A DNA stretch of 64,000 nt, taken from NCBI RefSeq assembly GCF_055900595.2, contig NZ_CM148325.1. One strand, written 5' to 3'. Under the pieces are notes generated by a model. The model saw only the letters and a program-made list of their open reading frames with translations, searched no databases and was not told where the DNA came from. Positions 11,335 to 14,351 of this stretch are shown here, piece by piece (within the stretch, counting starts at the first letter, position 1; each line of letters starts with the position of its first letter). A program made the translations under genes and the position numbers.

Positions 11335-13197
<1,863 letters not shown>

Positions 13198-13376
13198 TCC
13201 CTACTCCACTCCTGCTATGCTTAAGAAATTATTCATAGACTCTAAATAATTCGAGTTGCAGGAAGGCGGCAAACGAGTGAAGCCCCAGGAGCTTACATAA
13301 GTAAGTGACTGGGGTGAACGAATGCAGCCGCAGCACATGCAACTTGAAGTATGACGAGTATGGCAGGAGTGGCAGC

Positions 13377-14351
13377 ATGCAATACAACCCCTTAGGAAAA
13401 ACCGACCTTCGCATTTCCCGACTTTGCCTCGGCTGTATGACCTTTGGTGAGCCGGATCGCGGTAATCACGCATGGACACTGCCCGAAGAGAGCAGCCGTC
13501 CCATCATTAAACGCGCGCTGGAAGGCGGCATAAATTTCTTTGATACCGCCAATAGTTATTCTGACGGCAGCAGCGAAGAGATCGTCGGTCGTGCACTGCG
13601 GGACTTTGCCCGTCGTGAAGACGTGGTCGTTGCAACTAAAGTGTTCCATCGCGTTGGTGATTTGCCGGAAGGATTATCCCGTGCGCAAATTTTGCGCTCT
13701 ATTGACGACAGCTTGCGACGTCTCGGCATGGATTATGTCGATATCCTGCAAATTCATCGCTGGGATTACAACACGCCGATCGAAGAGACGCTGGAAGCCC
13801 TGAACGACGTGGTAAAAGCCGGGAAAGCGCGTTATATCGGCGCGTCATCCATGCACGCCTCGCAGTTTGCTCAGGCGCTGGAACTGCAAAAACAGCACGG
13901 CTGGGCGCAGTTTGTCAGTATGCAGGATCACTACAATCTGATTTATCGCGAAGAAGAACGAGAGATGCTGCCGCTGTGTTATCAGGAAGGCGTGGCGGTG
14001 ATTCCGTGGAGTCCGCTGGCGCGGGGACGTCTGACGCGTCCGTGGGGAGAAACCACCGCGCGGCTGGTGTCGGATGAAGTGGGGAAAAATCTCTACCAAG
14101 AAAGCGATGAAAATGACGCGCAGATTGCAGAACGCTTAACGGGCGTCAGTGAAGAACTGGGGGCAACGCGAGCACAAGTCGCGCTGGCCTGGTTGTTGAG
14201 CAAACCTGGCATTGCCGCACCGATTATCGGTACATCGCGGGAAGAACAACTTGATGAATTGCTGAACGCGGTGGATATCACCTTGAAGCCGGAACAGATT
14301 GCTGAACTGGAAACGCCGTATAAACCGCATCCGGTCGTAGGATTTAAGTAA
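13377..14351 (+). CDS. yajO: aldo-keto reductase YajO
   Basis: Start set to MQYNPLGKTDLRISRLCLGCMTFG (324 aa); ORF-track extension not used. Confidence 0.92.
   Translation: MQYNPLGKTDLRISRLCLGCMTFGEPDRGNHAWTLPEESSRPIIKRALEGGINFFDTANSYSDGSSEEIVGRALRDFARREDVVVATKVFHRVGDLPEGLSRAQILRSIDDSLRRLGMDYVDILQIHRWDYNTPIEETLEALNDVVKAGKARYIGASSMHASQFAQALELQKQHGWAQFVSMQDHYNLIYREEEREMLPLCYQEGVAVIPWSPLARGRLTRPWGETTARLVSDEVGKNLYQESDENDAQIAERLTGVSEELGATRAQVALAWLLSKPGIAAPIIGTSREEQLDELLNAVDITLKPEQIAELETPYKPHPVVGFK

Follow-up and report, generated by a model that had tools for sequence, protein, structure and literature searches.

Is the inverted repeat that brackets the spacer between dxs and yajO part of a regulatory structure, and on which transcripts would such a structure act? 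The locus lies in a 64,000-nucleotide stretch of contig NZ_CM148325.1 (assembly GCF_055900595.2), referred to here as the window, in which 179 nt separate the dxs stop codon (13195 to 13197) from the yajO ATG at 13377. A prediction made earlier from the sequence alone (the original prediction) had described this spacer, put at roughly 180 nt, as a structured leader whose distal repeat arm could occlude yajO translation initiation through a long-range fold. We propose, with a probability of roughly 0.6 for the whole chain of events, that the repeat forms an isoform-specific hairpin gate on yajO, coupled to Rho termination, with yajO's own promoter located in the 5' arm and an ERIC repeat carried in the loop as a passenger.

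According to this proposal, transcripts entering from dxs as part of xseB-ispA-dxs would carry both arms, the stem would close over the AGGAG of yajO, and yajO would remain untranslated. Rho would then terminate within the untranslated yajO start, and exonucleases would trim the RNA back to the stem, which would be left as the 3' end of the dxs message. At the DNA level, the same 5' arm would double as the extended -10 element of yajO, whose own transcripts would start in the loop with an open ribosome-binding site. The hairpin gate would uncouple YajO synthesis from transcription of the dxs operon.

Inverted repeat and predicted fold

The features on which the proposal is built are the following.

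11335 to 13197, plus strand: dxs coding sequence, 620 aa (open reading frame list; Pfam DXP_synthase_N, Transket_pyr and Transketolase_C; RefSeq annotation of identical DNA).
13198 to 13203, plus strand: C/U-rich linker from the dxs stop codon to the stem; 6 to 22 nt and likewise C/U-rich elsewhere among the species surveyed.
13204 to 13222, plus strand: 5' arm of the hairpin, with core CCACTCCTGC at 13206 to 13215; obtained in folds and kept in E. coli with an empty site and in 80 species.
13356 to 13375, plus strand: 3' arm of the hairpin, with core GCAGGAGTGG at 13363 to 13372; its first 6 nt are the ERIC terminus in the window allele.
13365 to 13369, plus strand: yajO Shine-Dalgarno sequence AGGAG, with the ATG 7 nt downstream; predicted to be buried in read-through RNA and open in RNA from yajO's own promoter.
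13377 to 14351, plus strand: yajO coding sequence, 324 aa, an aldo/keto reductase (open reading frame, domain and RefSeq evidence).

Both gene identities match the RefSeq annotation, the region being 100% identical in E. coli strain Z0117EC0005. The two cores are exact reverse complements at the positions originally described, and a repeat search extends the arms to 16 nt with 88% complementarity (13206 to 13221 and 13357 to 13372). In the minimum free energy (MFE) RNA fold, they form a 19-bp stem that includes G-U pairs and a single bulge (13204 to 13222 and 13356 to 13375). As had been claimed, the distal arm sits just upstream of yajO and holds its Shine-Dalgarno sequence: CTCCTGC in the 5' arm is the complement of that region, and AGGAG is predicted to pair with CUCCU at 13209 to 13213. 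The whole spacer folds at -80.1 kcal/mol (z = -7.95 versus shuffles), with most of the energy contributed by the ERIC element. Shuffling the spacer produces a perfect inverted repeat of 10 bp or more in 36 of 5000 cases (0.7%), and such a repeat occurs in 31 of 710 windows of 180 nt slid along the 64-kb sequence (4.4%); the 10-bp repeat by itself is thus uncommon and suggestive, not decisive. What is decisive for pairing, on comparative grounds, is the presence of the same arms in E. coli genomes that do not have the intervening 125 bp and in 80 of 80 other species.

Accessibility of the ribosome-binding site was taken from thermodynamic folding predictions. In RNA read through from dxs, the predicted probability that AGGAG is unpaired is ~0.000 with the ERIC element present or not, while in RNA starting at 13228, the position of yajO's own transcription start site (TSS), it is 0.28 to 0.66, again with or without ERIC. 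The comparison was extended to a survey with one genome per species that comprised 80 Enterobacteriaceae loci, of which 77 spacers were aligned, with 84 spacers entering the promoter and accessibility counts; the genera include Escherichia, Citrobacter, Salmonella, Enterobacter, Klebsiella, Kosakonia, Leclercia, Lelliottia, Pluralibacter and Atlantibacter. Across the 84 spacers, the median probability for an unpaired Shine-Dalgarno sequence is 0.000 in read-through RNA (below 0.05 in 81) and 0.52 in own-TSS RNA (above 0.3 in 72), the values of L019, L038 and L039 being unreliable because a later GGAG was picked. In the proposed gate, the stem would form in vivo and block yajO translation. The idea of a structured leader that occludes initiation therefore survives in its pairing and in the predicted burial of the Shine-Dalgarno sequence, but it applies to transcripts that enter from dxs and not to yajO's own mRNA.

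Translational coupling by ribosomes that finish at the dxs stop codon was considered and rejected. The stem begins 6 to 8 nt past the stop in E. coli and 12 to 22 nt past it in many genera, so direct melting cannot be general, and only the outer pairs would be within its reach.

A probable yajO promoter within the 5' arm

Two features place the start of yajO's own transcript between the arms.

13213 to 13221, plus strand: extended -10 element TGcTATGCT for yajO, within the 5' arm (sequence conservation; K-12 TSS 7 nt downstream).
13228, plus strand: equivalent of the K-12 yajO-only TSS (NC_000913.3 438284, reverse), between the arms (SMRT-Cappable-seq, K-12 data).

The box TGcTATGCT, as TGCTATGCT, is identical in 83 of the 84 spacers, the remaining one reading TGCTATGAT. 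Only in about half of the species does its TATG have a pairing partner (alignment pairs 34-84, 35-83 and 36-82), yet it is conserved; TATGCT is kept even without such a partner, a constraint on the 5' arm beyond pairing. A K-12 SMRT-Cappable-seq operon table (PMC6131387) contains a yajO-only unit with its TSS at 438284, reverse (row 'b0419 438284 reverse same'). K-12 coordinates c were converted to window positions p by p = 13376 - (c_v3 - 438136) = 13376 - (c_v2 - 437360). The K-12 start is the A in TATGCTtaagaaA, exactly 7 nt past the hexamer and at window 13228, and it matches the start predicted from the -10 box. Since this position lies between the arms, yajO's own mRNA is without the 5' arm; its leader would be short and open, at 23 to 34 nt in empty alleles. 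In the same table, xseB-ispA-dxs units are marked 'ShorterEnd' relative to the four-gene operon of RegulonDB, that is, they end before yajO (PMC6131387). That the -10 box is conserved in 84 of 84 spacers supports, at the level of sequence, the generality of the K-12 start, and the K-12 transcript ends presumably hold for the window strain and for empty alleles as well.

Other candidate signals in the spacer were rejected. A -10 sequence CATAAT over the dxs stop codon, which would feed a start at 13205, is found in Escherichia and Citrobacter but is not conserved beyond them, many other species having GCCTGA there. A promoter predicted by scanning (TTAAGA-18-AATAAT, 13221 to 13250) would be made by ERIC, and no TSS data support it. 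A leader peptide beginning at the invariant ATG of TATGCTT would be encoded in frames of 4 to 17 codons with ends unrelated between species, and the sequence upstream of that ATG resembles the complement of a Shine-Dalgarno sequence.

A Rho-dependent 3' end at the base of the stem

The RNA 3' end mapped in K-12 adds one feature.

13377, plus strand: equivalent of the dominant K-12 Term-seq RNA 3' end (438135, minus strand); +1 of the yajO ATG and 2 nt beyond the last paired base of the stem.

Adams et al. 2021 (PMC7815308) recorded 38,352 reads for the 3' end at 438135, with a Rho score of 2.89 and a position in a significant Rho termination region. In the same study, a lacZ fusion carrying the yajO 5' untranslated region (UTR) and open reading frame was expressed more than 2-fold higher in rhoR66S (PMC7815308). 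The leader of that fusion begins with TCCACTCCTGC..., equivalent to window 13205, and both arms are therefore included. The authors remark in general terms that Rho termination within coding sequence probably follows translational repression (PMC7815308). A Rho-dependent K-12 3' end at the base of the stem fits the gate, in which Rho termination would be a consequence of the block to translation.

Intrinsic termination does not account for this 3' end: the stem is followed by CAGCAUGCAAUAC with no run of T, a terminator scan found none in the spacer, and the published intrinsic-terminator score is 1.03 against a cut-off of 3.0 (PMC7815308). A riboswitch, a thermometer or another known RNA family was rejected as well, as no Rfam match reaches its gathering score in the spacer or in the whole window, and the loop is unconserved.

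The strongest competing account of the same data is that the hairpin is selected only as a barrier and stabilizer at the 3' end of the xseB-ispA-dxs mRNA, to which RNA terminated by Rho is trimmed back, its overlap with the yajO ribosome-binding site having no regulatory meaning. A strong Term-seq 3' end located 2 nt beyond the stem base, full-length reads in which dxs units stop before yajO, and a stem that is stable at -28 kcal/mol even without ERIC all speak for a barrier. A pure barrier, however, could sit elsewhere in the spacer, whereas the 3' arm is the Shine-Dalgarno region itself and the 5' arm is its exact complement in 80 of 80 species. We regard a barrier acting alone as unlikely; a barrier role is compatible with the gate, where it is included as a second function.

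Conservation of the hairpin across Enterobacteriaceae

In all 80 loci, dxs is directly upstream of yajO and the hairpin is present. The spacers of 74 of the 80 species have no ERIC element and measure 54 to 75 nt, and every one of them folds into the same hairpin. Its consensus is (Y)CGCTCCTGCTATGCTTAA, a variable loop and AGCAGGAGYGG, followed by 5 to 8 nt and the start codon. CTCCTGCTATG and the TT that follows are invariant in 77 of 77 aligned spacers, with the intervening C and the next AA nearly so, and GGAG of the 3' arm is invariant in the same alignment. The loop, the linker and the synonymous sites at the end of dxs vary freely, the loop in both sequence and length.

Covariation across enterobacterial spacers, which the original prediction had named as a check, was found in the outer pairs. 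In the aligned spacers, 83.8% of the cells of a 16-pair helix are paired, compared with 33 to 51% in slid registers; both partners have changed in five pairs, and covariation scores 0.113 where shuffles give 0.080. With respect to paired fraction, two-sided changes and covariation score, none of 500 shuffles reaches the observed value and all slid registers do worse, in comparisons uncorrected for phylogeny. Pair 25-93 occurs as G-U (30), G-C (27), A-U (8) and U-A (2), and pair 23-95 as C-G (48), U-A (10) and U-G (8). These informative pairs are the outer ones, beyond the Shine-Dalgarno core.

The covarying positions bear on the view that only DNA-level functions are selected, a -10 element in one arm and a Shine-Dalgarno sequence in the other, their complementarity being incidental. 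Each arm does have its own reason for conservation, and the core pairs never vary. Against this, positions outside both motifs covary (pairs 25-93 and 23-95), the pairing beats every slid register and shuffle, and CTCC upstream of the TG is invariant although no promoter requires it, which together make the view improbable.

Several observations weigh against the gate. The seven core pairs CTCCTGC/GCAGGAG are invariant and carry no covariation information, so the core is neutral on pairing; Shine-Dalgarno and -10 functions would conserve each arm separately, and only the outer pairs covary. The transcript-end data are all from K-12, which has a filled allele with A at 13362, and not from the window strain or an empty allele. 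A significant Rho region around the 3' end is no proof that lack of translation causes termination. Adams et al. cloned the yajO leader from window 13205, with the 5' arm included (PMC7815308), and Kim et al. 2012 recorded a 5' end at v2 437453, which is window 13283 at the ERIC apex, with 19 reads; some yajO-specific transcripts may thus carry both arms, although the Kim et al. end is probably a processing product. Finally, the stem is weakened in E. albertii by an A-A mismatch (CACCTGC versus GCGGGAG), and the predicted probability of an unpaired Shine-Dalgarno sequence there is 0.25.

In five species (L030, L046, L052, L062 and L071; column 101 of alignment A2), the yajO start is GTG and not ATG, by a tblastn-based assignment; the Shine-Dalgarno sequence and the stem of these species are unchanged.

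An ERIC element in the hairpin loop

Most of the spacer between the arms of the window allele is taken up by a repeat.

13235 to 13361, no strand assigned: ERIC/IRU miniature inverted-repeat element, 127 bp (a net gain of 125 bp over empty alleles); it lies within the loop of the hairpin, entering at +8/+9 of the yajO transcript.
13283 to 13314, no strand assigned: ERIC central inverted repeat (CCCCAGG...CTGGGG), coinciding with the ERIC1R and ERIC2 primer sites.

The second feature is the local hairpin of the original prediction (gccccagg...ctggggtg), found at 13283 to 13296 and 13301 to 13314. Of the standard primer sequences, ERIC2 matches 21 of 22 positions at 13299 to 13320 on the plus strand and ERIC1R 21 of 22 at 13277 to 13298 on the minus strand, where 0 matches are expected by chance. 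Searched alone at megablast sensitivity, the ERIC segment finds matches in 5,425 of the 5,426 complete E. coli genomes, the median being 5 places in each. Aligned with the ERIC copy between ybhI and ybhJ, it shows 94.5% identity along 127 bp, the homology stopping exactly at 13235 and 13361, and its transcript folds as a long imperfect hairpin in MFE structures. Length and termini, a central repeat with the primer sites, dispersed intergenic copies, insertion at TA with matching empty sites and a long-hairpin fold all agree with ERIC, and the filling of the spacer is an already known kind of element. It shares with ERIC, IRU or RU-1 sequences as reviewed (PMC2229807, PMC10969869) the length of 127 bp, the imperfect palindrome, the primer-site core, the TA ends, the intergenic position, cotranscription, the multiple copies and the strain polymorphism. 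The element itself is ordinary; particular to this copy are its position in the loop of a hairpin, its entry at +8/+9 of an mRNA and an end that completes an antisense promoter.

Rfam model RF02818, V_AS5 (Vibrio antisense RNA AS5), matches 13235 to 13358 along the entire length of the model at 52.5 bits (E = 3e-10), below its gathering threshold of 96. To our knowledge, Rfam holds no ERIC family. V_AS5 probably models an ERIC-like repeat in Vibrio and not a dedicated RNA gene.

The full-length, ERIC-filled spacer is present in 2,843 of 5,426 complete E. coli genomes (52%); the remaining ~48% match in two pieces that span 125 bp less and keep both arms. Alignment of the window, K-12, O157:H7 and strain CDE6306 gives the empty site as ...CCACTCCTGCTATGCTTAAGAAATTATTCATGGCAGGAGTGGCAGCATG, and the ERIC-less arms fold at about -28 kcal/mol into a compact hairpin whose loop measures ~14 nt. 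Both arms being present in empty sites, they are resident sequence and not derived from ERIC. The empty-site sequence is TTCATGGCAGG, and the filled site of K-12 reads TTCA-TA-GACTC...GAGTA-TA-GCAGG; Citrobacter sp. MGH106 and Kosakonia oryziphila carry TTCATAGC, with TA, at the site. The ERIC ends are TA...TA in K-12 and TA...TG in the window, a difference that comes from an A/G polymorphism at 13362. A at this position, in K-12 and E. albertii, gives TA at the junction, a U-A stem pair and the antisense -10 hexamer TATACT; with G, as in the window and in every empty E. coli allele, the stem pair is G-U and the hexamer CATACT. Among 25 evenly spaced records, 5 are filled with G, 7 filled with A, 1 filled with an internal insertion and 11 empty, and 1 is a partial plasmid match. 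The filled-G allele could be an intermediate toward precise loss or a recombinant.

The element would have inserted at TA in the loop as a passenger that preserves the predicted behavior of both isoforms. Where there had been a stem closing a loop of ~14 nt, it would leave a rod of ~170 nt, and it would lengthen the yajO leader from 24 to 149 nt. The arms are far apart because ERIC inserted between them: the long-range structure originally proposed is real as a pairing, but its distance is due only to the insertion, the arms being 14 to 30 nt apart in the ancestral or empty form.

ERIC copies recur in the same loop elsewhere. E. albertii has one with an extra internal ~80 nt near the apex (L005:2368-2447). 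Phytobacter diazotrophicus, P. ursingii and 'Kosakonia sp. S29' (L027, L032 and L039; ~2361 to 2485) have a diverged copy, 75.6% identical to that of E. coli, in an E. coli-like orientation and with an entry one base from the E. coli site. The metagenome-assembled genome (MAG) UBA3516 (L038; 2413 to 2503) retains two ERIC termini only (CTTACTCG...AAGTAAGACGAGTAA), which looks like an internal deletion of ERIC. Two independent insertions would be the more parsimonious history when set against one ancient insertion followed by many precise losses, which is also possible. As separate observations, E. coli GPEC60-33-648 (H36) has a similarly enlarged ERIC copy, its match spanning 208 nt in two pieces, and extra ERIC copies lie ~2 kb upstream of yajO, at another intergenic site of the same gene cluster, in two Enterobacteriaceae genomes (L021:443-542 and L078:442-559).

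An antisense RNA from the ERIC junction

The junction of ERIC with the 3' arm contributes a further candidate element.

13357 to 13365, minus strand: antisense extended -10 at the ERIC end/3' arm junction, TGCTATACT in K-12 and TGCCATACT in the window; predicted start 13350.

The start predicted from the K-12 junction is v2 437386, or window 13350. Huang et al. 2020 (PMC7373196) described a p19-captured RNase III double-stranded RNA (dsRNA) cluster, S-43, at v2 437393-437579, fourth most abundant among coding loci, and attributed it to an unannotated antisense RNA. For this cluster, their Table S1 gives a Thomason antisense TSS, '437386 +', and a Conway antisense unit, 437387-437951 (PMC7373196); the predicted start coincides exactly with the Thomason TSS. 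S-43 maps to window 13157 to 13343, and an antisense RNA from the junction promoter explains it. The promoter was made by the insertion, since its hexamer TATACT is the ERIC terminus, placed beside a resident TGC; the empty allele has TGCCATGAA at this position. In K-12-type alleles, the antisense RNA would run back across ERIC into dxs. The window promoter is expected to be weaker, judging from TGCCATACT, which is without the first T of the hexamer.

A weak antisense TSS inside ERIC, at window 13243 (K-12 v2 437493, minus strand), is also listed in Table S1 of Huang et al. (PMC7373196). The minor 5' ends at 13283 (sense) and 13243 (antisense) could be processing products or come from a weak ERIC-internal promoter.

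S-43 also bears on a reading in which the main role of the long stem, above all when extended by ERIC, is to let RNase III separate the dxs and yajO messages in the manner of Correia elements in Neisseria. The cluster's rank among the p19-captured dsRNA of K-12 coding loci speaks for this reading, as does the ERIC-extended rod, which is long enough to serve as substrate. Yet S-43 ends at 13343 and, on its other side, includes 41 nt of dxs that lie outside the hairpin, an extent that fits a sense-antisense duplex rather than an intramolecular stem. According to its authors, p19 does not capture the cleavage products of imperfect intramolecular stems (PMC7373196), and at 14 to 19 bp, the stem formed in other species and in alleles without ERIC is a short one for this enzyme. 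A primary role as a processing site is accordingly a poor prospect.

The same evidence allows a wider proposal, which we put forward tentatively and hold to be possible, if on the doubtful side. The hairpin would be a two-way insulator with promoter potential in both arms, in which ERIC switches on a strong antisense RNA that forms RNase III-cleaved duplexes with the dxs 3' end and the yajO leader; empty, filled-A and filled-G alleles would then differ heritably in post-transcriptional control of Dxs. If this holds, the fact that ERIC occupies this loop again in Phytobacter and relatives, a second clade, would hint at targeting to, or retention at, TA sites beside hairpin stems.

The alleles also bear on the original prediction as a whole, namely, that the entire 180-nt spacer is yajO's own structured leader with a dedicated long-range regulatory fold. 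Adams et al. did take 13205 onward as the yajO 5' UTR, and their construct was Rho-sensitive (PMC7815308). About 70% of the spacer is nevertheless a mobile repeat that ~48% of E. coli genomes do not have and that is likewise missing in 74 of the 80 other species, and the triphosphate-specific TSS at 13228 lies inside the loop, leaving a dedicated leader of this kind very improbable. The weakest account, in which the 10-bp repeat matches by chance or belongs to the terminal inverted repeats of ERIC, draws on ERIC elements being imperfect palindromes directly flanked here by the arms and is refuted by the presence of both arms in empty sites and in 74 ERIC-less species and by homology with the other ERIC copy that stops at 13235 and 13361, inside the arms.

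Relation to known systems

The hairpin gate on yajO most resembles the fold-back inhibition that reportedly silences externally initiated transposase transcripts of IS10/Tn10 (Davis, Simons and Kleckner 1985) and IS50/Tn5 (Schulz and Reznikoff 1991). In both cases, a sequence upstream of the gene's own start is complementary to the ribosome-binding site and pairs with it, and the gene's own transcript, starting between the arms, is open; at dxs-yajO, the predicted Shine-Dalgarno sequence lies in the 3' arm of the stem and the gene's own K-12 TSS between the arms. The differences are that dxs-yajO is a chromosomal housekeeping operon junction and not a transposase gene, that its 5' arm also bears a -10 element, that silencing appears coupled to Rho termination and the 3' end of the upstream mRNA, and that the gate is here a prediction. 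By analogy, it may be regarded as a new example of a known mechanism of the IS10/IS50 fold-back type.

ERIC-dependent destabilization of mRNA in Yersinia (De Gregorio et al. 2005), as summarized in two reviews (PMC2229807, PMC10969869), involves an RNase E site in an ERIC arm that is exposed by ribosomes terminating near the element. As far as those summaries go, the two situations share an ERIC element cotranscribed between two genes, a long hairpin and differing fates of the upstream and downstream RNA. They differ in that the differential fate at dxs-yajO is predicted from the resident flanking stem, ERIC not being needed.

The terminal sequence of a Correia element supplies a -10-like hexamer that yields a promoter beside suitable flanking bases. 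The ERIC element at dxs-yajO is similar in that its end provides such a hexamer and in its association with RNase III. In Neisseria, the transcribed Correia element is associated with RNase III cleavage (PMC10969869). Correia sequences belong to another element family, however, and the dsRNA at dxs-yajO is most likely a sense-antisense duplex and not the element's own hairpin.

A literature search found no paper describing a gate at dxs-yajO, nor one pairing ERIC with yajO; a paper in which yajO features prominently (PMC7092628) concerns knock-outs only.

Significance of the locus

Dxs catalyzes the flux-controlling first step of the MEP isoprenoid pathway, a step that the yajO enzyme can bypass, and a conserved gate that uncouples the two genes in both translation and transcription would affect both the annotation and the engineering of the 'xseB-ispA-dxs-yajO operon'. 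The proposal would also supply a sequence-level explanation for three unexplained K-12 entries: the Rho-dependent 3' end at +1 of yajO, the yajO-only capped transcript and the abundant RNase III dsRNA cluster. The presence or absence of ERIC constitutes a natural experiment, in which a mobile repeat is tolerated in a putative regulatory hairpin and is able to create an antisense promoter. For genome scanning, the locus suggests that where a long-range inverted repeat brackets a strongly structured spacer, a mobile repeat may have split what was once a short hairpin.

Other features of the region

A weak DicF-like Rfam match within the yajO coding sequence (13523 to 13564, minus strand; 18.7 bits, E = 0.43, gathering score 48) is almost certainly due to chance. 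Between yajO and pgpA, the window carries a gene for a 509-aa pentapeptide-repeat protein (14582 to 16111, plus strand) that is absent from K-12; directly downstream of the locus, this variable accessory gene is full-length in only 932 of the 5,426 complete E. coli genomes.

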